In this document: one piece after another, positions 2,143-16,813 of the stretch
Layout of the letters: the number at the start of each line of letters is the position of its first letter
How positions within the stretch are numbered: the stretch's first letter is position 1
Source of the DNA: Candidatus Bipolaricaulota bacterium
Lineage (GTDB): Bacteria; Bipolaricaulota; Bipolaricaulia; UBA7950; UBA9294
Length of the DNA stretch: 64,000 nt
Assembly: GCA_040752575.1 (NCBI GenBank)
Contig: JBFMGK010000011.1
Location: 2,580 to 66,579 of the forward strand
Reading direction: 5' to 3'
Translations under genes and position numbers: made by a program
Notes under the pieces: model-generated
The model's input: only the letters and a program-made list of their open reading frames with translations
Told to the model about the DNA's origin: nothing
Database searches by the model: none

Positions 2143-2796
2143 TCAGTAGGGATACTGCATCTGGGTTCCGAACCCCTCCTTGGAGGCGCAGTTGTCCCAG
2201 ACCTCGCGCAGCGTGAACACGTAGGCCGGGTACTTGAGCCAACGATCGAGGTCCGGCCGGTGATACACGTCGTGCTGGGCGTTGATGAACTGCTGATAGA
2301 TCTCTCGCTTGCCGGACGCCGTCTGATCGAAGATCTCGATCGTGCCTCGGAGTTCGTAGGACACCATTGGGGGCTGATAGTAGATCAGCGTGGCCTCGGG
2401 ATTCGCCCGGTAGTTGTTCCAGCTATGCTTCTTGGCCATCTCCAAGCTGCCAAGGCGCGTCAGATCGATTCGATCCTGCACTTCGGGTCTGTAGAGGTGC
2501 TTAACGAGCAGGGCCAAGCCGCGCTGGCTGTACGCTTGGTCGTCTCCGTCGTAGCTCTTGATGTGCTGCATGTACGCGTCAAGCGTCTCCTCCAGATACT
2601 CGGGCTTCGGTAGGAAGCCGACCCCCTTGATGCTGCCGTTGAGTCCGTCGGGGCCGTGGGAGATGAAGGCCGGATTGTGAGAGCAGAAACTCAGGAAGAC
2701 CTTCTCCCGGCTCATCTCCTCCCCTTCGTGGAGCTTGATGACCGTCTGCGCTCTCGACCGAAACGCCCAGTTGAAGAATGCCTCGGCTGACTTCAT
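2143..2796 (-). CDS. Pyridoxamine 5'-phosphate oxidase-like FMN-binding split-barrel protein
   Basis: SHNPAFIS...NGSIKGVGF, KHSWNNYRANPEATLIYYQPPMVSYELRG pattern; GGAGG RBS upstream. Confidence 0.6.
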   Translation of the reverse strand: MKSAEAFFNWAFRSRAQTVIKLHEGEEMSREKVFLSFCSHNPAFISHGPDGLNGSIKGVGFLPKPEYLEETLDAYMQHIKSYDGDDQAYSQRGLALLVKHLYRPEVQDRIDLTRLGSLEMAKKHSWNNYRANPEATLIYYQPPMVSYELRGTIEIFDQTASGKREIYQQFINAQHDVYHRPDLDRWLKYPAYVFTLREVWDNCASKEGFGTQMQYPY

Positions 2797-2963
2797 GACG
2801 ACCCCTCCAGATGGTAAGGACTTCGTGCGATCCTAGCGTGCCCCCGAAGTTCCGTCAACGGCGACAGCGCGGTCCCGGAGTTCGCTCTTCCAAATGGAGT
2901 TGAGCCTGGGCTACCGAAGAGCGCCGCAGGACTGCATCGGATCGGCGGTGATCCGGGAGCGTC

Positions 2964-2992
2964 TTGACATGCCATGAGACGGGCTGTAGTTT
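2964..2992 (+). promoter_or_regulatory. Sigma70-type promoter TTGACA-N17-TAGTTT
   Basis: Consensus -35, 17-bp spacer, TAnnnT -10, 74 nt upstream of ATG 3067 with GAGGAGG RBS. Confidence 0.75.
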
Positions 2993-3066
2993 GAGCACGA
3001 GGGACGTGGAGCCTGACGCGTTCCGCGCGAAACAGGCCATCCAGGTTGGACTAGAGGAGGCTCGGT

Positions 3067-4407
3067 ATGTGTCGGAAGTTGGGAGCATGCATTGTGGTGT
3101 TGTTGATGTTCCTAGCACTCGCTGGCGTGGCCGCACTCGGCGCCGGGCGCTATGAGGCGATCGCGGGAGACTACCAGATCGACATCACGAACCTTGGGAT
3201 GCCGCTCATCTTCTACCTGCGGATTGACGCGGACGGGGCCTTCATGCTCGCCCCGAATACGGGTTTCGATCCCGTCGAGAGTCGCGGCGAGGGAGTGCTT
3301 GCCGAGAGTGGCGGCGTCTACATGATGATCTACAAGGAGCACACGTCCGACAATCCCAAGACGGCGACCTTCGTGCTCGACGGGCCGAACCTGGTGTTTC
3401 AATCGCGGCTTCCCTATGGCGCGAGCAACATCCTAAACAGCGCCGAGGATCCGGACGATCCGACGATTGTCTACCTCCTGACCGCGGACACGCTGGTGCT
3501 CGCGGAGTATTTCGGCACCTACGTCGGCTCCCACTCCACGCAGGCCATGGGGGCCACCGTCGAGTACGTGTACACGCTCGAGCTGAAGGCCGGGCTGCGC
3601 TATGCGTTCGTGAGCGAATTCGCCATGGGCGGCACCGACTACAGCTATGCCGAGAACGGTACCTGGAGTGTGGCCGACGGCAAGCTGACGCTTGATCCCG
3701 CCGACGAGGACCCCGTCGAGGGGACCATCAGCGCTGAAGGCGAGATCACCGTCGCGATCCGCCCGTCCGCTATGGCACCGATGAGGGCCGACCGCATTCT
3801 GCGCATCGCAACCCATGCCGAGGTGGCAGGCACCTACGTTGGCGAGAAGTCCTCGCCCATGTACACGGTGAAGTCGACGCTGGACCTGGACATGTTCGGC
3901 AACTACCACTACAGCGCCGATGTCGGAATGCCCGACAAGTACGAAGAGACGGGGGCGTACGATGTGGTCGACGGCACCGTCACCTTGGCCCCTGAAGGCG
4001 GGGCGGCGTACATGGCGATGTTAGCGAATCTGGTCGTGACGGGACGCTTCCGAATCATCGGCTCGATGCCGGCGACGGACCTCGTTATGTACAGCTCGAC
4101 GATTCAGGGAACGTTCGCCGGTACGGCGACAAACGAGGAGATCGAGTACACCGCTCGCCTCACGCTGAGCCCGGGTGGCACGTATGCGCTGCAGGTGACG
4201 GACGGCACGGAGCAAGTGATCGTCGACTCGGCGGGTAGCTTCGAGATGCGGCGCGGCATGACGCTCATGGTCGTCCTCGCCGGTATGGACCCGGCGCCGA
4301 CGTGTTCCGTCAGCGCCGAGGAGCTGAACCTGTCCATCGTGCTTCCGGGCGTCACCGTGACCTCGGGGATGGGCGGCGGTCTGGGCTTCACGCTCCGGAG
4401 AGAGTGA
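3067..4407 (+). CDS. Secreted protein with four lipocalin-like beta-rich repeats
   Basis: Signal peptide; repeated G-[TD]-[YF]-x starts (AGDYQ, FGTYVG, AGTYVG, QGTFAG); strong RBS. Confidence 0.75.
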   Translation: MCRKLGACIVVLLMFLALAGVAALGAGRYEAIAGDYQIDITNLGMPLIFYLRIDADGAFMLAPNTGFDPVESRGEGVLAESGGVYMMIYKEHTSDNPKTATFVLDGPNLVFQSRLPYGASNILNSAEDPDDPTIVYLLTADTLVLAEYFGTYVGSHSTQAMGATVEYVYTLELKAGLRYAFVSEFAMGGTDYSYAENGTWSVADGKLTLDPADEDPVEGTISAEGEITVAIRPSAMAPMRADRILRIATHAEVAGTYVGEKSSPMYTVKSTLDLDMFGNYHYSADVGMPDKYEETGAYDVVDGTVTLAPEGGAAYMAMLANLVVTGRFRIIGSMPATDLVMYSSTIQGTFAGTATNEEIEYTARLTLSPGGTYALQVTDGTEQVIVDSAGSFEMRRGMTLMVVLAGMDPAPTCSVSAEELNLSIVLPGVTVTSGMGGGLGFTLRRE

Positions 4408-9496: not shown

Positions 9497-10542
9497 TCGG
9501 TCTCGAGCGCGAAGCCGGCCCCCTGTTGGAGATGGAGAACGTCTCGGTCAACTTCCCCGTCAAGAAGGCCTACCCGTTCAGCCGGAGGCGCTGGATCCAG
9601 GCCGTCACCGACGTCTCCCTCCGCGTCGCCTATGGCGAGACGTTCGGTATCGTCGGGGAGTCGGGCTGCGGAAAGAGCACGCTGGCCAACGCGATGGTCG
9701 GCATGGTCCGCCCGACGGCAGGTGTCGTGCGCTTCCAGGGCGCCGACCTGTACTCCCTGAGACGCCGCGAGTTTCGAGACGCACGGCGGAACATGCAGAT
9801 GATCTTTCAGGACCCCTTCTCGTCGCTCAATCCGCGATTCTCGGTCTACGAGATCATCCGCGAGCCGCTCTACATCCGCGGCGGGGCGACGGAGTCTGCG
9901 ATGAAGGCAAGAGTGCTGGAACTCCTCAAGCTCGTCGGCCTCGATGAGGAGGACATGAACCGCTTCCCCTCGGACTTCTCCGGCGGGCAGCGCCAGCGCA
10001 TCGGGATCGCTCGTGCGATCATCCTCAATCCGGTCTTCCTGGCCTGCGACGAACCGGTCAGCGCGTTGGACGTGTCGGTGCACGCCCAGATTCTGAACCT
10101 GTTGATGGAAATCCAGCGGAGCCGGAACCTGACCTACGTGTTCATCTCGCACAATCTGGCCGTGGTGAAGAACATCTGCGACAATCTCCTCGTGATGTAC
10201 TTGGGCACGGTGATGGAGTCCGGAGCATCGGACGCCGTGTTCGCCAATCCCCTCCACCCGTACACGAAAGCCTTGCTGTCCGCGGTTCTCGACATCGATG
10301 TCGACGGATCTCGCGAGAGGATCCTCCTGAAGGGTGACACGCCAAGTCCGATCGATCCGCCGAGGGGATGTCGATTCTGGCAGCGCTGCCCGTCGGCGAT
10401 GAACGGCTGCGCGGCGATTCCGGCGCCTCTGGTTGAGGTCGAGCCGGGCCATCAGGTCGCATGCCATCTCGTCTCCGGCTTCTCTCGCGAGCAACTTGCG
10501 GCCGGCGCCGGAGAACCCGTCACTTCGGCGACCGGTTCGTGA
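9493..10542 (+). CDS. Peptide ABC ATP-binding protein (OppF-like)
   Basis: GESGCGKS, FSGGQRQR, CDEPVSALD, HPYTKALL, GCRFWQRC; ATG 9493 overlaps the previous stop. Confidence 0.95.
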   Translation: MIGLEREAGPLLEMENVSVNFPVKKAYPFSRRRWIQAVTDVSLRVAYGETFGIVGESGCGKSTLANAMVGMVRPTAGVVRFQGADLYSLRRREFRDARRNMQMIFQDPFSSLNPRFSVYEIIREPLYIRGGATESAMKARVLELLKLVGLDEEDMNRFPSDFSGGQRQRIGIARAIILNPVFLACDEPVSALDVSVHAQILNLLMEIQRSRNLTYVFISHNLAVVKNICDNLLVMYLGTVMESGASDAVFANPLHPYTKALLSAVLDIDVDGSRERILLKGDTPSPIDPPRGCRFWQRCPSAMNGCAAIPAPLVEVEPGHQVACHLVSGFSREQLAAGAGEPVTSATGS

Positions 10543-10552
10543 GCAATCCGTC

Positions 10553-10927
10553 GTGACACGAAGAGCGAAGGCCCTGGCGCTGTGCGCGTCTCAGGCCCTG
10601 ATGCTGGGCTGCTTGAGCCTCCTCCAGGTCGCGCCAGGTCGATTCTCCCTTGCGCTGTTGGTGGCGATGCACGTGGGGATCGTGTCGTTCATGAAGCTGA
10701 GGAGAAGCCTCGCCGCAGGCTCGCCGGACGTCGCACGGGTCGCGCGTGCCACCTATCTTCTGTTGGCCGTGTACCTGCCGGTGCTGCTCTACAGGTTGCT
10801 TGGCACGCTTGGCCTGCTTCGTGTCGACCCTCACGTTCTTCTCGGCGTGACGGTCGGGCTCTCCCTTCCCGCGGCTCTCCTCAATGGCTGGGCGATTTGG
10901 AGACTGGGAGTACGAGGGGGAGATTAG
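10553..10927 (+). CDS. Small four-TM hypothetical membrane protein
   Basis: Hydrophobic ORF directly after the opp operon; GTG start inferred. Confidence 0.55.
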   Translation: MTRRAKALALCASQALMLGCLSLLQVAPGRFSLALLVAMHVGIVSFMKLRRSLAAGSPDVARVARATYLLLAVYLPVLLYRLLGTLGLLRVDPHVLLGVTVGLSLPAALLNGWAIWRLGVRGGD

Positions 10928-11134
10928 CTCGCGAGAGAACGCTCCATGCCTGTGCAGAACGGCTTACGGAGCGCCGGATCGAGCCCGCGCGCCCCTTGGC
11001 GCCGGGCGATGATCGACTCCCCATCAGAGGCACTCCCACGGAGCAGGGCCTCGGGTCCCAGTGAACAGGCTGCCGGGGTACGGGCGTGCGAAGGCGAGGC
11101 TCCACGCTGGATCCCCGACGGGCGGCGGACGACG

Positions 11135-11178
11135 TTGCCCAAGCTGCGGACCTGGAGTATATTAGTCATCACGTATAT
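11135..11178 (+). promoter_or_regulatory. Promoter TTGCCC-N17-TATATT with overlapping ArsR-type imperfect palindrome (ATATtaG..CgtATAT)
   Basis: Directly upstream of the arsR-family start codon. Confidence 0.55.
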
Positions 11179-11593
11179 GGATCCCACGAACGCCCCGAAG
11201 CCTACGATCGAAGTCCTCTGTGCTGGGCTGAGGGTCCTCTCGGTCGAGACTCGGCTACGGATGCTGACGTTGCTCGCCGAGCGCAACCTGTGCGTTGGGG
11301 CTTTGGCCTGTCAGCTTGGACTCACGCAGGGGGCCGTCTCTCAGCATCTCAAGGTACTGCGAGAAGCCGGTCTTGTGGCGGCAGAGCGCGCGGGGTACTT
11401 CGTGCACTACAAAGTCGATGGCGTGTCCGTGGGTCGATTGCAGGCGGCCCTCGATCGGATGCTCGAGCAGGTCCAGCGGGGGCGCGCAGATCGGGGGCCG
11501 GGGAGCGAGACAGCCAAGCAGGGGTGCGGAAGCCGAAAGGAGAGCGCATGTGCGAAAAGTCGCCAGGTTGTTGCCAGAAGGGGCGCGACGTAG
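11177..11593 (+). CDS. ArsR/SmtB family transcriptional regulator
   Basis: TRLRMLTLL..NLCVGALACQLGLTQGAVSQHLKVLREAGLV..ERAGYFVHY. Confidence 0.92.
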   Translation: MDPTNAPKPTIEVLCAGLRVLSVETRLRMLTLLAERNLCVGALACQLGLTQGAVSQHLKVLREAGLVAAERAGYFVHYKVDGVSVGRLQAALDRMLEQVQRGRADRGPGSETAKQGCGSRKESACAKSRQVVARRGAT

Positions 11594-11742
11594 CCCGCGG
11601 GGGTTGCTCGCCCGAGCAGATCCACGAGTGCCACGGCCCCGAGGGTGGCCATCCGTGCAAGAATGCCGCGGGGGAGTGTTCGCCTGAGCAGATCCGCGAC
11701 GGTCATGGGGCCGAAGCGGATCACCCTTGCAAGCGGGGATAG
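11548..11742 (+). CDS. 64-aa Cys/His-rich microprotein (metallothionein-like candidate)
   Basis: AGGAG RBS; 8 Cys and 5 His; two 24-aa repeats CSPEQI..[C/G]HG...HPCK. Confidence 0.7.
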   Translation: MCEKSPGCCQKGRDVARGGCSPEQIHECHGPEGGHPCKNAAGECSPEQIRDGHGAEADHPCKRG

Positions 11743-11752
11743 GGGTCTGCCG

Positions 11753-12721
11753 ATGTCGATCCGGGTTCAGGGCCTCTCGAAGGCGTTCGACGACGTTCAG
11801 GCGGTTGCCGAAGTCTCCTTCGAGATCCAGGAGGGCGAGTTGTTCGGTTTGCTCGGGCCGAATGGCGCGGGGAAGACGACGACGATCAACATGCTTACGG
11901 GGTTGGCGCGCCCCGACAGCGGATCGATCCACGTCGGCGGCATCGACTGCACCCGAAACGTCAAGGCGGCGCAGCACCTGGTCGGCGTCGTTCCCGACGA
12001 GAGCAACCTCTACCCTGAGCTGACGGGGAGGCAGAACCTCACGTTCTGCGCCGCGCTGTATGGGATCCCCAAGAGGGAGCGCGAGGAACGGGCTCGCCGC
12101 CTGATCGACCAGTTCGGCCTCAGCGACGCAGCCGACCGGAAGTTCGCCGGCTATTCGAAGGGGATGAAGCGCAAGTTGACGATTGCCGCGGGCATCATCC
12201 ATCGACCTCCGATCCTCTTCCTCGACGAGCCGACGACCGGGATCGACGTCGCCAGTGCACGGCAGATCCGACAGCTGATTGCGTCGCTCAACGCGGACGG
12301 GACGACGATCTTGTTGACGACGCACTACATCGAGGAGGCCGAAAGACTGTGCGGACGGATTGCGTTCATCGTGCGCGGACGCATCGTGCGGATCGATCGC
12401 GTATCCGACCTGCTGCAACCGCTTCAGGAGAAGCACGTTGCCGTCATCGAGGTATCGGATGCGGTGAGGGTCGATGCGCGCGCTTTGGCTGCGGCATTCC
12501 CGAAGGCTCGGTTCGAAACGCCTAAGCCCGGTGAAGTTCGGGTCGAATCGCACGTACGGATGGCTGTGGGGCCGATCGTGCGCTTCCTGGAAGAGGCCGG
12601 CGTCGAGGTGGCCGAAGCCCGACGCGTTCGACCGTCACTGGAGGAGGTCTTCGTTCAGGTCACGGGGATTGAGGCCGACGCGATGCGCGGCGAGAAGCCG
12701 AGGGCGGGGGGGCGGACATGA
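11753..12721 (+). CDS. ABC-2 type exporter ATP-binding protein
   Basis: GPNGAGKTT, YSKGMKRK, FLDEPTTGID, TTHY. Confidence 0.93.
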   Translation: MSIRVQGLSKAFDDVQAVAEVSFEIQEGELFGLLGPNGAGKTTTINMLTGLARPDSGSIHVGGIDCTRNVKAAQHLVGVVPDESNLYPELTGRQNLTFCAALYGIPKREREERARRLIDQFGLSDAADRKFAGYSKGMKRKLTIAAGIIHRPPILFLDEPTTGIDVASARQIRQLIASLNADGTTILLTTHYIEEAERLCGRIAFIVRGRIVRIDRVSDLLQPLQEKHVAVIEVSDAVRVDARALAAAFPKARFETPKPGEVRVESHVRMAVGPIVRFLEEAGVEVAEARRVRPSLEEVFVQVTGIEADAMRGEKPRAGGRT

Positions 12722-13458
12722 GACGCGCGTGGATTGCCTTCTGGAGCATCCTCGGCAAGGACATGCGGTCCTACTACCTGAAGCCGCCGAACATCAGCTG
12801 GGGAATCATCTTTCCCTTCGCCTGGACCGGCATGTTCCTGATTCGCTCTGGCGGGTCAGTCAGCGACGTGCTGTCTCTTCTGCCCGGCGTGATGGCGATC
12901 TCGATTCTCTTTGGCACAACGTCCATGCTCGCGGTCACGATTACCTTCGAGAAGAAGGGTCGATCGTTCGAGCGGCTGTTGCTGGCTCCGATTGCGCTTG
13001 ACCTGCTGATGATGGCCAAGACGGCAGGCGCGGTCGCCTTTGGCATCGCCAACGCGTTCGTTCCGGTCGCGATGGTCGCGTTCCTCGTCGATCTCTCGGG
13101 GATCGCCTGGGGCGTCCTGATCTCCGCTGTCGTGCTGATCGCGCTTTCCTCGACATTTGTCGGTCTGTTCGTGGCCGTGGCGGTCAGCGAGGTGTTCGAA
13201 GCGCAGACCTTCTCCAACTTCCTGCGCTTTCCGATGATCTTCCTTTGCGGGCTGTTCTTTCCGATCGAGAGCCTCCCGTGGGCCATCCGACCGCTGTCCT
13301 ACGCCCTGCCTCTGACGTACGGCGTCGACGCCCTACGCGGCGCCGTGCTGGGCAGCCGGTCGCTGCCGCTGGCTGTCGATCTGCCGGTGCTCGCTTTCTT
13401 CTGTGTCGCGCTATTTGCGCTGAGCCTGCGGAACATACGGAGGAAGTGGATCGTCTAG
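12718..13458 (+). CDS. ABC-2 type exporter permease
   Basis: Six TM segments, FERLLLAP, FLCGLFFP..LP, LPLTYGVDALR. Confidence 0.9.
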   Translation: MRRAWIAFWSILGKDMRSYYLKPPNISWGIIFPFAWTGMFLIRSGGSVSDVLSLLPGVMAISILFGTTSMLAVTITFEKKGRSFERLLLAPIALDLLMMAKTAGAVAFGIANAFVPVAMVAFLVDLSGIAWGVLISAVVLIALSSTFVGLFVAVAVSEVFEAQTFSNFLRFPMIFLCGLFFPIESLPWAIRPLSYALPLTYGVDALRGAVLGSRSLPLAVDLPVLAFFCVALFALSLRNIRRKWIV

Positions 13459-13548
13459 CGGGCGCATGCCTTGCGGCGCGAGCGATCCGCTTCCGCATCA
13501 GCTCAGACCTCAAGCCGCTCTACATACAGAGGCGCCCGGCGTAGCTGC

Positions 13549-13700
13549 GGGGTCAGATCTTCATTCTTGGTGTTCCTGCGGCTCCGTGATGAGTCTCAGG
13601 TGCCTCGGGCTCGGTCCTGCGTCACGACGGTGGGCGCGCGGCAAACCTTCCTCTTGGGCGAAGTCGCACTGCTGTCGGGTGGCGGGGGCGCGTCTTGCCT
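13549..13700 (+). repeat. Direct repeat copy 1 (152 bp), starting and ending in 26-bp GGGGTCA..TCTTG motifs
   Basis: 150/152 identical to 15382-15533. Confidence 0.95.
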
Positions 13701-14153
13701 TTGGGCGTTGGGTCCGGTTGACCGTCTGCGATAACGGGTTTGTCGGCCTTCCCCTGATATGTTCATAGTGTCGATGCGTGAGTCAGCTCCGTGTACTGGT
13801 CGCGAACGCATACGTGCAGGAGCGCAACGAGTGCAGAGGCCACAACCAAGTGCAGAGGCTCCCCGCGCGCGGGTTCGCTACTTCGCTGACGAAGCGGGGG
13901 GCCCAAAGCTCTTCGGTGAGAAGGGGCGCTGCATCACCGGCAAGGACGGATGCTCGCACTGCTTTGCTCTCCGACTCCCCGAAGTCGAGGCCCGCGCGGA
14001 ATGCGAAGCAGGCTGAAGCTGGTGCAGAAGCGGCTGCTGGCCGATCCATGCTCCCGTGGAGCCAGCAGCGTCCATGCCGCGACCGCGGCAACGAAGGGCT
14101 AGCTCCATGGCGGGATTGTGGTTGTTATCTATCTGGATTACTCTATTCTGCAC

Positions 14154-14948
14154 ATGAGAGGCTACCGTTTGTACGTCGACGAGGTCGGTAATTCCAGCCT
14201 GCGCGTCGGCGATCCGAACAACGAGAACGATCGCTTCCTATCGCTGACCGGCGTAGCCGTTCGAGGAGACTACGCACTCGCGTCCTTCGTGCCTGAGATG
14301 GATGCCCTGAAGAGGAGATTCTTCCAGACAGACCCAGACGTGCCGGTGATCCTCCACAGGACGGATATGCTCAACAGGAAGTGGCCTTTCACCGAGTTGC
14401 AGGACCCGGCTACAGAGAGCGCTTTCTATGTAGCGTTGAACGAGCGACTGGCAGCGTGGGAATATGCAGTTGTCTCCGTCGTGATAGACAAGCACCGGCA
14501 GAAGAATCTCTACCAGGTTTGGCAGGCTAATCCATATCACTACTGCATGAAGGTGCTACTAGAGAGGTACGTGATGTTCCTGCAGGGGGGCAGCGCGACG
14601 GGCGATGTCATGGTAGAGAGCAGACAGGCGAAAGACGACTTCAAGCTCAAGGAGTCGTACAAGCGTCTCTACATCTCCGGCACCGAGCGAATCGCAGCCA
14701 CGAGTTTCCAGCGCCGGCTATCGTCGAAGGAACTGAAGGTCAAACCCAAGAGCGCCAATATCGCGGGCCTTCAACTCGCGGATCTACTCGCCTGCGGAGC
14801 GCAACGAGGGATTCTCTCCGAGGTTGGGCTCCCGTCTCGCTCGAACCACGGGTTCGACTCGGATGTCTGGGCGCTTCTTGAGGGCGCGAAGTTCATCCGT
14901 GACCGCGATGGAAAGACTCTTGGGTTCGGAAAGAAACTCCTCCCATAG
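14154..14948 (+). CDS. DUF3800 domain protein
   Basis: LYVDEVG N-terminus, VILHRTDM, ESR..KDD, NIAGLQLADLLA. Confidence 0.85.
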   Translation: MRGYRLYVDEVGNSSLRVGDPNNENDRFLSLTGVAVRGDYALASFVPEMDALKRRFFQTDPDVPVILHRTDMLNRKWPFTELQDPATESAFYVALNERLAAWEYAVVSVVIDKHRQKNLYQVWQANPYHYCMKVLLERYVMFLQGGSATGDVMVESRQAKDDFKLKESYKRLYISGTERIAATSFQRRLSSKELKVKPKSANIAGLQLADLLACGAQRGILSEVGLPSRSNHGFDSDVWALLEGAKFIRDRDGKTLGFGKKLLP

Positions 14949-14954
14949 AAGAAG

Positions 14955-15030
14955 AGAAGCGCCCGTTGGGGCGCCCTCCCGATGGCCTACGGACCATCCA
15001 CCTCCGACGAGCGGATTACTCCGAGCTTAG
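14955..15030 (+). ncRNA. Candidate DUF3800-associated structured RNA
   Basis: GC-rich short stems (GCGCCC/GGGCGC; GATGG/CCATC) immediately after the DUF3800 stop; position typical of DUF3800 RNA motifs; no covariance test done. Confidence 0.4.
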
Positions 15031-15133
15031 CATTGTGTACGTGCGAAGTCAAGAGCGCCGCGGCTGCGTAACCCACACCTCTACTGAGCTTGGCGCATCT
15101 TGCGCAGAGTTTCGAAGCGGGCGACGGGGTCTG

Positions 15134-15542
15134 GGAGTCAGAGTCGTTTCTTGCCCCTAGACGGCAGTGGGTCAAAACGAAGCTGGCGTTGACACCAGTG
15201 AGGTCGCGTGGTCAGATCTCAACTCTTTGCATCGCGCGGCACCTCGACAGGACGTCAAAGTGGCCGCGGGGTCAGATCTTCATTCTTGGTGTCTCTGCGG
15301 CTCCGTGATGAGTCTCAGGTGCCTCGGGCTCGGTCCTGCGTCACGACGGTGGGCGCGCGGCAAACCTTCCTCTTGGGCCACGGGGTCAGATCTTCATTCT
15401 TGGTGTTCCTGCGGCTCCGTGATGAGTCTCAGGTGCCTCGGGCTCGGTCCTGCGTCACGACGGTGGGCGCGCGGCAAACCTTCCTCTTGGGCGAAGTCGC
15501 ACTGCTGTCGGGTGGCGGGTTCGCGTCTTGCCTCTTGACGTT
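15134..15542 (+). repeat. Array of GGGGTCA-family motifs (about 15134, 15208, 15268, 15382, 15517) including repeat copies 2 (15268-15378) and 3 (15382-15533)
   Basis: Direct alignment; 114-bp tandem duplication; variable spacing 74/60/114/135 bp. Confidence 0.85.
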
Positions 15543-15748
15543 GGCACGGGCGACCCCCTTGATGCGGTGTCGTCTGGTCCTGCACTGCTGCACCCCGGCG
15601 CACCATCCGTCGGCGTGAAGAGGCCGCCAACGCCGTTCGACTTCGCTACTGCCGCGGTGCAGCTTCCCCGGCGCATCCCCGAAAGGGGGAGACGGTCGAA
15701 GCGCTGGAAATGGCGGAATCTCCTGGTCTAGGTCTTGCGCGCAACGGC

Positions 15749-16813
15749 CTAGAGCACGCCCTCGGCCGCGCCGAAGGCCTTCGAGATGACGCGTTCCGTT
15801 TCGCCGCTCACAATCATCAGCAGGTAGTCGCCGACCTCGATCGAGATGTCGTCCCGCGGGAGTTTCAGCAGCTTGCGGCCACCGCTTGTGCCCTTTGCGA
15901 TGCCGATGAGGACGACGTTGTATGCCTTCTTGAGGTCAACGAAGGCGTCCCCGTACGTCCGCCCCGCGTAGGGATTGCCTGGCGTCACGAGGAACTGCTG
16001 GATGTCGTATTCGTCGCTCCCCTCGGCAGAGGCGAGTAGATCGGCCTCGTACTCCGCGACGTCGGGTTCGAAGATGTAACTGGCAACCATCTTCGCGGCG
16101 ATCTCGCCTCGGGAGAGCACGAAGGTCACTCCCGCCGTGCGGAACGTCCCTCGGAGATCCTCGTTATCCAACGCGACGACGAACTGCGCGTTCGGGAATT
16201 CGCGCTTGATGTTGAGGATGGCCACCAGCTTGTCCGTGTCGGTCTTAAGGTTCGGGAAGACCATTCCGGCGTCTCGGATCCCGGCTTTCTCCAAGACGAG
16301 CGGATCCCTGAGATCGGCGAACAGCACGAAGACCTTGTCCCTTGGGAACTGCTCGTGGATCAGATCGACGTCGTCCTTCGCATCGGTAACGATCGCGACG
16401 CGCAGATCGGCTTTCAAGAGCTGCTGCGCGACCGACTTGGCGAAGTCGTCCCAGCCTACGATGAGAACATGCTTGCTGAAGCTCGTTCCATTGTGCCCCA
16501 TCCTTCTGCGCTCCCTTATCTCCGAGAGGCGTCCGGAGACCTTGTAGACGAGAACTCCGAGGACGCCAAGGCTGCCCAAGAGAAAGAGCGAGCCGATCGC
16601 CCTTCCCCCCGCGCTGACGGGGTACTTGTCCCCGTATCCGACGGTGGTGAGCGTGACGAGCGAGTACCAAGCGGCATCGCCGACACTGCGGATCGTCGCG
16701 CCGGGGTGCCCACGTTCAGCCCACACCAGAGACACGACGAGGAGGCTCCAGACCAGAACCAGAGGGACGATCACCTGCCACAGCCTCGGTCCATTCGTCT
16801 GCCGACCGCTCAC
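15749..16813 (-). CDS. Potassium channel protein (2-TM pore plus RCK/TrkA domains)
   Basis: Selectivity filter TLTTVGYGD, KHVLIVGWDDF; GGAGG RBS before GTG 16813. Confidence 0.92.
   Translation of the reverse strand: MSGRQTNGPRLWQVIVPLVLVWSLLVVSLVWAERGHPGATIRSVGDAAWYSLVTLTTVGYGDKYPVSAGGRAIGSLFLLGSLGVLGVLVYKVSGRLSEIRERRRMGHNGTSFSKHVLIVGWDDFAKSVAQQLLKADLRVAIVTDAKDDVDLIHEQFPRDKVFVLFADLRDPLVLEKAGIRDAGMVFPNLKTDTDKLVAILNIKREFPNAQFVVALDNEDLRGTFRTAGVTFVLSRGEIAAKMVASYIFEPDVAEYEADLLASAEGSDEYDIQQFLVTPGNPYAGRTYGDAFVDLKKAYNVVLIGIAKGTSGGRKLLKLPRDDISIEVGDYLLMIVSGETERVISKAFGAAEGVL

Follow-up and report, generated by a model that had tools for sequence, protein, structure and literature searches.

What is the role of a short, Cys-rich open reading frame that starts inside an arsR gene and stops just ahead of an exporter gene? 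The question is raised by a locus in a 64,000-nucleotide stretch of Candidatus Bipolaricaulota bacterium (assembly GCA_040752575.1, contig JBFMGK010000011.1, positions 2,580 to 66,579 of the forward strand; hereafter the window, in whose positions all window coordinates are given). Here positions 11548–11742 of the plus strand encode, in 64 stop-free codons, the product MCEKSPGCCQKGRDVARGGCSPEQIHECHGPEGGHPCKNAAGECSPEQIRDGHGAEADHPCKRG (P0001). Repressors of the ArsR/SmtB family are the main model of bacterial metal sensing, and the reading that we favour, with a probability of about 0.5, is that P0001 would be a detachable ligand-binding partner of the ArsR encoded immediately upstream, binding a thiophilic metal or metalloid, and would act either as a sensor subunit or as a chaperone that loads the repressor.

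P0001 contains eight Cys (residues 2, 8, 9, 20, 28, 37, 44, and 61) and five His (26, 29, 35, 53, and 59), i.e., 12.5% Cys and 7.8% His. The gene has its own Shine-Dalgarno sequence, AAGGAG at 11537–11542 (plus strand), located within the arsR coding sequence 5 nucleotides 5' of the ATG at 11548, and it overlaps the last 46 nucleotides of arsR in frame relation 2. An earlier sequence-only reading of the window, made without database searches, had proposed a 64-residue product with exactly this Cys and His content, a ribosome-binding site of its own and a start overlapping the 3' end of arsR, all of which hold. It had also called the gene unannotated, and in the public gene set of the contig the ArsR (as a 152-residue protein) and the ABC (ATP-binding cassette) ATPase are indeed present, while the small open reading frame is absent in all four possible forms; it appears to have been missed by gene calling in this assembly.

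Homologues were sought at several depths. A single-sequence word search gave one homologue only, whereas an exhaustive HMMER search of 1.8 billion representatives gave 16 proteins at E < 1e-3, 14 of which are 44–80 residues long and carry the same motif, and a profile of 79 sequences led to 1,698 protein clusters, so that conserved homologues do exist. The family profile itself matches the window with E = 1.3e-14. A scan of species-representative genomes revealed at least 173 relatives, 80 of which were fetched with their loci, and the locus counts below refer to these 80. The ATG lies behind a strong Shine-Dalgarno sequence, typically GAAAGGAG, (G)AAAGGAG or GAAGGGAG, in 79 of the 80 loci, and 61 of the products start with Met-Cys. 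In the region outside the arsR overlap dN/dS (the ratio of nonsynonymous to synonymous substitution rates) had a median of 0.16 and a maximum of 0.58 over 77 homologue pairs. Such a recurrence of the motif, of the ribosome-binding site with its ATG and of the position after arsR, over 80 loci and 1,698 clusters, is far beyond chance. The comparative evidence indicates that the small gene is real, under purifying selection and probably translated.

Neither the libraries nor the literature searched contain a description of the domain family. P0001 matched zero families of Pfam-A and NCBIfam at E ≤ 1, the family profile found nothing in the PDB at E ≤ 10, and all named clusters among the 1,698 are labelled "hypothetical protein", none of them with a Pfam domain. 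Literature searches found no description of this Cys/His family, and a selenoprotein/ABC preprint makes no mention of ArsR. All fetched loci are from metagenome-assembled genomes (MAGs), of Planctomycetota (Brocadiia and Phycisphaerae), Anaerolineae, Lentisphaerota, Kiritimatiellota, Acetothermia, Syntrophomonadaceae, Fermentibacteria/Aegiribacteria and Desulfobacterota. Many of the carrier MAGs come from soda-lake and other anoxic sediments. No plasmid carrying a relative was found.

The ligand pattern of the family is strict. A full unit reads C-x12-C-[ST]PEQ[IV]-x2-CHG-x4-HPC, with four Cys and two His and a first spacing of x(10–13). Among 142 units the His of CHG is present in all, the Cys before SPEQ and the Cys of CHG in 141 each, the G-x4-H spacing and the final Cys of the unit in 134 each, and the further Cys 13 residues upstream (C-x12-C) in 112. 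In the 79-sequence alignment M1, C9, C20, C28, H29, G30, and H35 (P0001 numbering) are invariant, and at least 90% of the sequences have C37. Two units are found in 57 of the 80 loci, a single unit in 22, and three in one. The three-unit protein (L065:4941–5351) has 136 residues, and its units 2 and 3 are separated by an additional Cys-rich linker, CTPAECLACEERPTC.

P0001 carries one complete and one degenerate unit. Unit 1 (11572–11658, plus strand; C9 to C37) satisfies the family pattern and retains all six ligand positions, C9, C20, C28, H29, H35, and C37, together with G30. Unit 2 (11677–11730, plus strand; C44 to C61) keeps C44, H53, H59, and C61, but its leading Cys is missing and the Cys of CHG is replaced by Gly52. 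At the DNA level the two units correspond to a direct repeat of 63 nucleotides, 11599–11661 and 11671–11733, which is 71% identical and spaced by 72 nucleotides, which bears out the 72-bp internal duplication read from the sequence earlier; the encoded segments, GCSPEQIHECHGPEGGHPCK and ECSPEQIRDGHGAEADHPCK, are identical at 13 of 20 positions, and the CHG Cys of the first is changed to Gly in the second. This lost Cys had likewise been noticed; the loss stands, and Gly at this position occurs in unit 2 of P0001 only (1 of 142 units). Ligand losses from unit 2 of the nearest relatives are different ones, the first Cys in L007 and L088 and a His in P0005. Judged from these alignments the second unit is decaying in the lineage of the window, and the loss is specific to that lineage rather than a family feature. 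One unit is evidently enough there, which fits the many one-unit members of the family.

What would such a unit bind? The family average is 14.9% Glu, 12.4% Cys, 9.9% Pro, 8.9% Gly, 8.6% Lys, and 6.5% His, with no Trp, no Phe, 0.2% Tyr and less than 3% each of Leu, Ile, and Val. A chain of this composition cannot form a hydrophobic core, for which reason the unit probably needs a bound ion of a thiophilic metal or metalloid in order to fold. AlphaFold2 gave a pLDDT (predicted local distance difference test score) of 54.7 with 15 aligned sequences and of 54.0 with 79, and predicted per unit only a short helix over PEQIxECH. Composition and low model confidence lend indirect support to an ion-dependent fold and do not amount to a demonstration. 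The sequence-only reading had called the product metallothionein-like. As a description of composition this is apt, as P0001 is small, Cys-rich and without aromatic residues, i.e., it has the broad functional traits of metallothioneins, and the family as a whole is Cys- and His-rich with few aromatic residues; as to kinship, no metallothionein model was matched. For the SmtA/BmtA type in particular (Pfam Metallothio_Pro, with its Cys9His2 Zn4-cluster fold) there was no model match at E ≤ 1, and the same was true of the Pfam models for ArsD, the CopZ-type HMA domain and TRASH/YHS. The further proposal that the motif is unlike that of SmtA is in keeping with the absence of any Pfam or NCBIfam match at this threshold. 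The invariant His argue for Zn, Cd, Ni, Co, or Cu as the likely ligand rather than for a pure As(III) site, and the transporters encoded next to the family are of both cation and oxyanion types.

A further indication of function is the gene neighbourhood. Of the 75 loci that are informative for the upstream side, 55 have arsR directly upstream of the small gene, and in 35 of these the two genes overlap by 43–52 nucleotides, with their frames related as they are in the window. In ten more loci arsR and the domain are fused in one frame (L010, L020, L028, L043, L044, L052, L064, L078, L082, and L086; hosts are MAGs of Anaerolineales, Syntrophomonadaceae, Desulfobacterales, and Bacillota). P0014, from the protein search, is a further ArsR fusion, and a search for fusion partners other than ArsR with the Cys/His region of P0014 returned P0014 alone. 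The Shine-Dalgarno sequence and the ATG at the junction are retained in 10 of 10 fusions, as if the free domain were also made from the fused genes. Because ArsR is adjacent or fused in 65 of the 75 loci while the downstream genes vary, the conserved partner is ArsR, and the tie to an ArsR-family repressor that had been read from the single locus is borne out across the family. No adjacent ArsR was found in the other ten loci. Five of these (L015, L017, L022, L025, and L032) are from Brocadiaceae, where a resistance-nodulation-division (RND) pump (HlyD and AcrB) precedes the small gene; in L017, the one case with a long enough contig, the same strand holds an arsR about 8.8 kb upstream, beyond the RND genes.

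The near-constant overlap, with the small frame at −1 relative to arsR in 35 loci, and the existence of in-frame fusions could also mean that the Cys/His segment is made only as a C-terminal extension of ArsR by a programmed −1 frameshift in the 46-nucleotide overlap; an internal Shine-Dalgarno sequence can stimulate frameshifting, as in dnaX. We consider this very improbable, as the ATG with its well-spaced Shine-Dalgarno sequence is kept in 79 of 80 loci, also where arsR is separate or distant, and some loci have the other frame relation. Programmed frameshifting was rejected on the slippery sites as well: only 3 of 46 overlaps contain an X_XXY_YYZ heptamer, and these heptamers lack conservation.

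Downstream of the small gene the gene content varies. In the window the small gene is followed after 10 nucleotides by a DrrA-like ABC ATPase of 322 residues (11753–12721, plus strand; ABC_tran, E = 1.6e-33), which scores 304 bits against TIGR01188 (drrA), under the cut-off of 312, and then by an ABC-2 permease of 246 residues (12718–13458, plus strand; ABC2_membrane, E = 4e-25), whose start overlaps the ATPase stop by 4 nucleotides. Of the 52 loci whose sequence extends far enough downstream, 35 have a DrrA-type ATPase within 2.5 kb, and in 19 loci an S-adenosylmethionine-dependent methyltransferase, with only weak, sub-threshold resemblance to ArsM, is found in between. Anaerolineae loci have type-I ABC half-transporters instead, and elsewhere RND pumps, a ChrA chromate-type transporter, MFS_MOT1 transporters or, in five loci, DsrE-like genes are found; some loci have pairs of extracytoplasmic function (ECF) sigma and anti-sigma factors with Metal_resist and OEP genes. 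The constant core is ArsR plus the small protein, not the ABC-2 exporter, and the coupling to an ABC-2 exporter suggested for the window is not upheld, as the exporter class is not conserved across loci. For the same reason a chaperone dedicated to the exporter is given less weight.

A small Cys-rich gene directly 5' of an ABC-2 exporter also recalls an exported peptide, or the precursor of a ribosomally synthesized and post-translationally modified peptide, that would be the substrate of the exporter. This is hardly to be expected: P0001 has no signal or leader peptide and is very acidic/basic and hydrophilic, neither a protease nor a conserved modification enzyme accompanies it, the exporter class changes, and in ten loci the domain forms a single protein with a cytoplasmic DNA binder.

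Two kinds of neighbourhood deserve separate mention. In a Kiritimatiellota MAG (L021:1816–3200) a ChrA-type transporter (PF02417, E = 4e-79) directly follows the small gene, with no ArsR detected upstream, and MFS_MOT1 (molybdate-type) transporters are found at four loci besides this one; these neighbours are hints that oxyanions are possibly among the ligands. In Aegiribacteria/Fermentibacteria (L073:3744–4109; also L062, L068, L074, and L075) nrdD-nrdG is followed by ArsR and a one-unit small gene, and next to these by a gene for a 121-residue protein that has a signal peptide and whose mature part is extremely rich in Cys, Asp, and Glu (...DCDNCETVDEECSCGG...CDCETPCDDCTCDD...). This protein had no Pfam or NCBIfam match and may, by its sequence, be a secreted metal-binding protein.

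If the small protein serves the repressor, the repressor itself should be of interest. The arsR gene of the window (11177–11593, plus strand) encodes 138 residues and belongs to the ArsR/SmtB family (PF01022, HTH_5, E = 3.1e-17; NF033788, HTH_metalloreg, 77.3 bits against a cut-off of 55), while the specific NCBIfam models CmtR, BigR, TsoR, and Rv2640c all stay far below their cut-offs. Its Cys include the conserved C39 of helix alpha3 (in LCV; LCVGAL) and C117 and C125 of the tail. Across 66 aligned partner ArsRs the conserved Cys and His are C39 (98%), H57 in the SQHL recognition helix, H77 in the wing and the C-terminal tail Cys, and no others. A complete canonical sensory site was not found in the partner ArsRs, neither alpha3 CxC/alpha3N nor alpha5 DxHx10Hx2E, as there is no CxC and no alpha5 His or Asp; this counts for a sensor made of two proteins.

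The tail Cys is connected to the small gene by its very codon. In 37 of 46 overlapping loci it is the TGT or TGC that results when ATG-TGY, which encodes Met-Cys in the small gene, is read in the frame of arsR, and in loci with the other frame relation a Cys codon lies 4–7 nucleotides 5' of the small-gene ATG instead; counting both frame relations, 41 of the 46 have an ArsR Cys within 7 nucleotides of that ATG. In the window the ATG-TGY junction is at 11546–11553. Both readings of the junction nucleotides appear to be under selection. Many partner ArsRs have a second Cys 7–8 residues earlier, as with C117 and C125 of the window. Each ArsR monomer could by this count supply up to three thiolates, which would allow either a self-sufficient S3 sensor or an exchange of the ion with the partner.

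One helical Cys plus a C-terminal Cys is also the arrangement of BigR and SqrR, and it is conceivable that the Cys4His2 unit holds an Fe-S cluster or a di- or polysulfide and signals sulfide or oxidant stress to a BigR/SqrR-like ArsR. The hosts are anaerobes of sulfidic sediments, DsrE-like genes are found in five loci, four Cys per unit could ligate a cluster, and there is a weak match to BigR (43.7 bits). This score is, however, far under the cut-off of 155, the operons are without persulfide dioxygenase or rhodanese, the downstream genes are mostly efflux pumps and metal-resistance proteins, and two invariant His per unit suit a metal-ion site better, so that we regard a redox, persulfide or Fe-S module as improbable.

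The control region has what an operon of this kind is expected to have. The only promoter-like site between 10900 and 13800 is a sigma-70-type promoter, TTGCCC-17 nt-TATATT, at 11135–11163 (plus strand), and from the −10 box to the arsR start codon extends an imperfect palindrome with the halves ATATTAGTCA and TCACGTATAT (11159–11178, plus strand), read from the sequence as a candidate ArsR operator. Most related loci have, 5' of arsR, TTGACA, about 17 nucleotides and TAGTAT or TATATT, followed by an inverted repeat that in most lineages reads TTAGC-N4-6-GCTAA; the start of arsR is a few nucleotides further on. In a genome of the same family as that of the window (G011) the corresponding place holds a perfect palindrome, ATATTCGTG-CT-CACGAATAT. 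Promoter plus palindrome is the usual layout of an autoregulated ArsR operon. The 152-residue ArsR of the public gene set starts from a TTG at 11135, within the −35 hexamer of the operon promoter; the ATG at 11177 agrees with the N-termini of homologues, and the transcript would then be nearly leaderless. An Rfam scan of window positions 10000–16000 found no family.

Put together, the proposal for the window is as follows. P0001 would be a cytoplasmic mini-protein with one intact and one decayed Cys4His2 unit, and its translation would depend on a strong ribosome-binding site of its own that lies within the 3' end of arsR. The Cys4His2 site would capture a thiophilic metal or metalloid ion, and the formation of a P0001-ArsR complex, or ligand exchange with the alpha3 Cys and the tail Cys, would set the occupancy of the palindromic operator by ArsR. 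When ArsR leaves the operator the arsR-small-ABC-ABC2 operon would be turned on and the exporter expressed. It is the pattern of fusion and fission, together with a constant ArsR-small pair and varied downstream genes, that points to the repressor as the conserved partner, and this pattern favours a role as sensor, co-regulator or repressor chaperone over that of a simple buffer or an exporter-specific chaperone.

Several observations weigh against this proposal. The ArsR tail has Cys of its own, in the window C-x7-C, which with C39 form a possible S3 site and could make the repressor a self-sufficient sensor. The strong Shine-Dalgarno sequence of the small gene, set against a nearly leaderless arsR, suggests that the small protein is made in excess over ArsR, as would be expected of a buffer more than of a stoichiometric subunit. 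Members of the family have between one and three units, a variation also seen in metallothioneins, and the second unit is being lost in the very lineage of the window. The low-confidence AlphaFold models leave the contact with ArsR and the coordination geometry as guesses, and the stretch was found in no public RNA run, the search giving one weak DNA match only.

The main rival, and in part the view of the sequence-only reading, is a metallothionein-like buffer, i.e., an ArsR-controlled output that sequesters excess cytoplasmic metal, in the manner of SmtA under SmtB, while ArsR senses alone through C39 and the tail Cys. Besides unit number, translation signals and the C-x7-C pair, such a buffer would account for a composition typical of bacterial metallothioneins and for the metal-stress neighbours, i.e., Metal_resist, OEP, RND and the secreted Cys/Asp-rich protein. 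We nevertheless hold it to be less likely than the partner reading: in-frame fusions to the repressor arose in at least four lineages, which would be unusual if the protein were a buffer, 12% Cys is little for a sponge of high capacity, the unit with its strict spacing and its invariant PEQI-x2-CHG helix looks more like a defined domain than a cluster-forming peptide, and a single unit suffices in many lineages (22 of 80 loci).

Returning to the detachable partner, it is tempting to extend the proposal from P0001 to the group. The ArsRs of this group might be two-piece sensors whose module is translated separately from a start within the arsR 3' end, with ribosome-binding site and ATG kept even in the fusions, and in which the C-terminal Cys of the repressor and the Met-Cys of the partner share ATG-TGY; the pair would then be a portable switch placed before at least five unrelated efflux or sequestration systems in uncultured anaerobes. 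This wider claim is put forward tentatively, as a possibility that falls somewhat short of an even chance.

Known systems provide parallels for most parts of the proposal. As in the SmtB-SmtA and AzuR-NmtA pairs of cyanobacteria, an ArsR-family regulator stands beside a small Cys/His-rich, aromatic-free protein in a context of metal stress. SmtA, however, has no sequence relation to P0001, as the bacterial metallothionein model remained unmatched; the ligand pattern here is a repeated C-x12-C-x7-CH-x5-H-x-C unit; and the small gene is co-directional with arsR and overlaps it, whereas SmtB-SmtA is divergent. In addition, the present domain is fused to the repressor in several lineages and an exporter usually follows. 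The gene order repressor, small Cys metal carrier, ATPase, permease is that of copYZAB in Enterococcus hirae and of arsRDAB on R773. CopZ delivers Cu(I) to the repressor CopY, and ArsD combines the roles of As(III) chaperone for ArsA and weak repressor, so that a carrier communicating with a repressor is a known mechanism. Neither the HMA domain of CopZ nor ArsD is related to the small protein by any Pfam match, and the pump is of the ABC-2 type here and of entirely different classes in the relatives. In the CopT/CopM system of Sulfolobus the small, Cys-containing TRASH domain occurs both free and at the C-terminus of the adjacent regulator, beside an exporter. The motif there is C-x19-22-C-x3-C, in contrast to the present one, which had no YHS/TRASH match in Pfam, and the regulator is Lrp/TrmB-like rather than an ArsR. 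Judged by these comparisons the small gene resembles SmtA/BmtA, ArsD, HMA, and TRASH/YHS in logic only and is a member of none of these families.

To our knowledge the known sensory sites of ArsR/SmtB repressors all lie within the repressor, with SrnR/SrnQ of Streptomyces griseus as a rare exception. There an ArsR-family DNA binder is reported to work with a separate Ni-binding partner of no known family (PMC7055735, citing Kim et al. 2003), which is the same two-polypeptide sensor logic as proposed for ArsR and P0001. The differences are that the SrnRQ complex was shown biochemically, while contact between ArsR and P0001 is inferred from gene fusion and synteny only, and that SrnRQ represses sodF with Ni present, while the efflux operon here would be derepressed. 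What would be novel, judging from the sequence comparisons, is a new domain together with an unusual overlapping or fused architecture for an ArsR-linked metal-binding or metal-sensing protein. If the proposal is true, the approximately 1,700 clusters from many phyla would stand for a metal-binding fold not described so far and for a novel design of a metal switch. Through the family, moreover, a large number of small genes that gene callers miss or label hypothetical can be recognized in MAGs of sulfidic and soda-lake sediments; the metal and metalloid chemistry of such sediments is unusual, and the family offers a handle for finding efflux systems there.

Close to the window the gene is sparsely distributed. 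It is carried by 4 of 41 related genomes and by none of 7 in the window's genus, and the permease orthologue is likewise absent from all 7 same-genus genomes. A recent horizontal import was considered on the ground of composition and rejected, as the G+C content of the operon, 0.63–0.66, equals that of its surroundings; the arsR-small-exporter operon is an accessory cassette, and its composition carries no signature.

In G011 (L091, G011:C23, 2640–3810) an orthologous ABC-2 exporter, with a permease 87% identical to that of the window, has kept the promoter and the perfect palindrome, ATATTCGTGCTCACGAATAT, and a 19-codon remnant replaces arsR and the small gene. The ABC ATPase is there split into two frames, 2752–3465 and 3481–3810. 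Either the switch has been lost naturally there or the assembly is in error. Finally, just downstream of the ABC-2 permease of the window the open reading frame listing shows the peptide GSDLHSWCSCGSVMSLRCLGLGPASRRWARGKPSSWA three times, within 13466–13768 and 15167–15538, and the underlying DNA forms near-identical repeats that flank the gene at 14118–14948.

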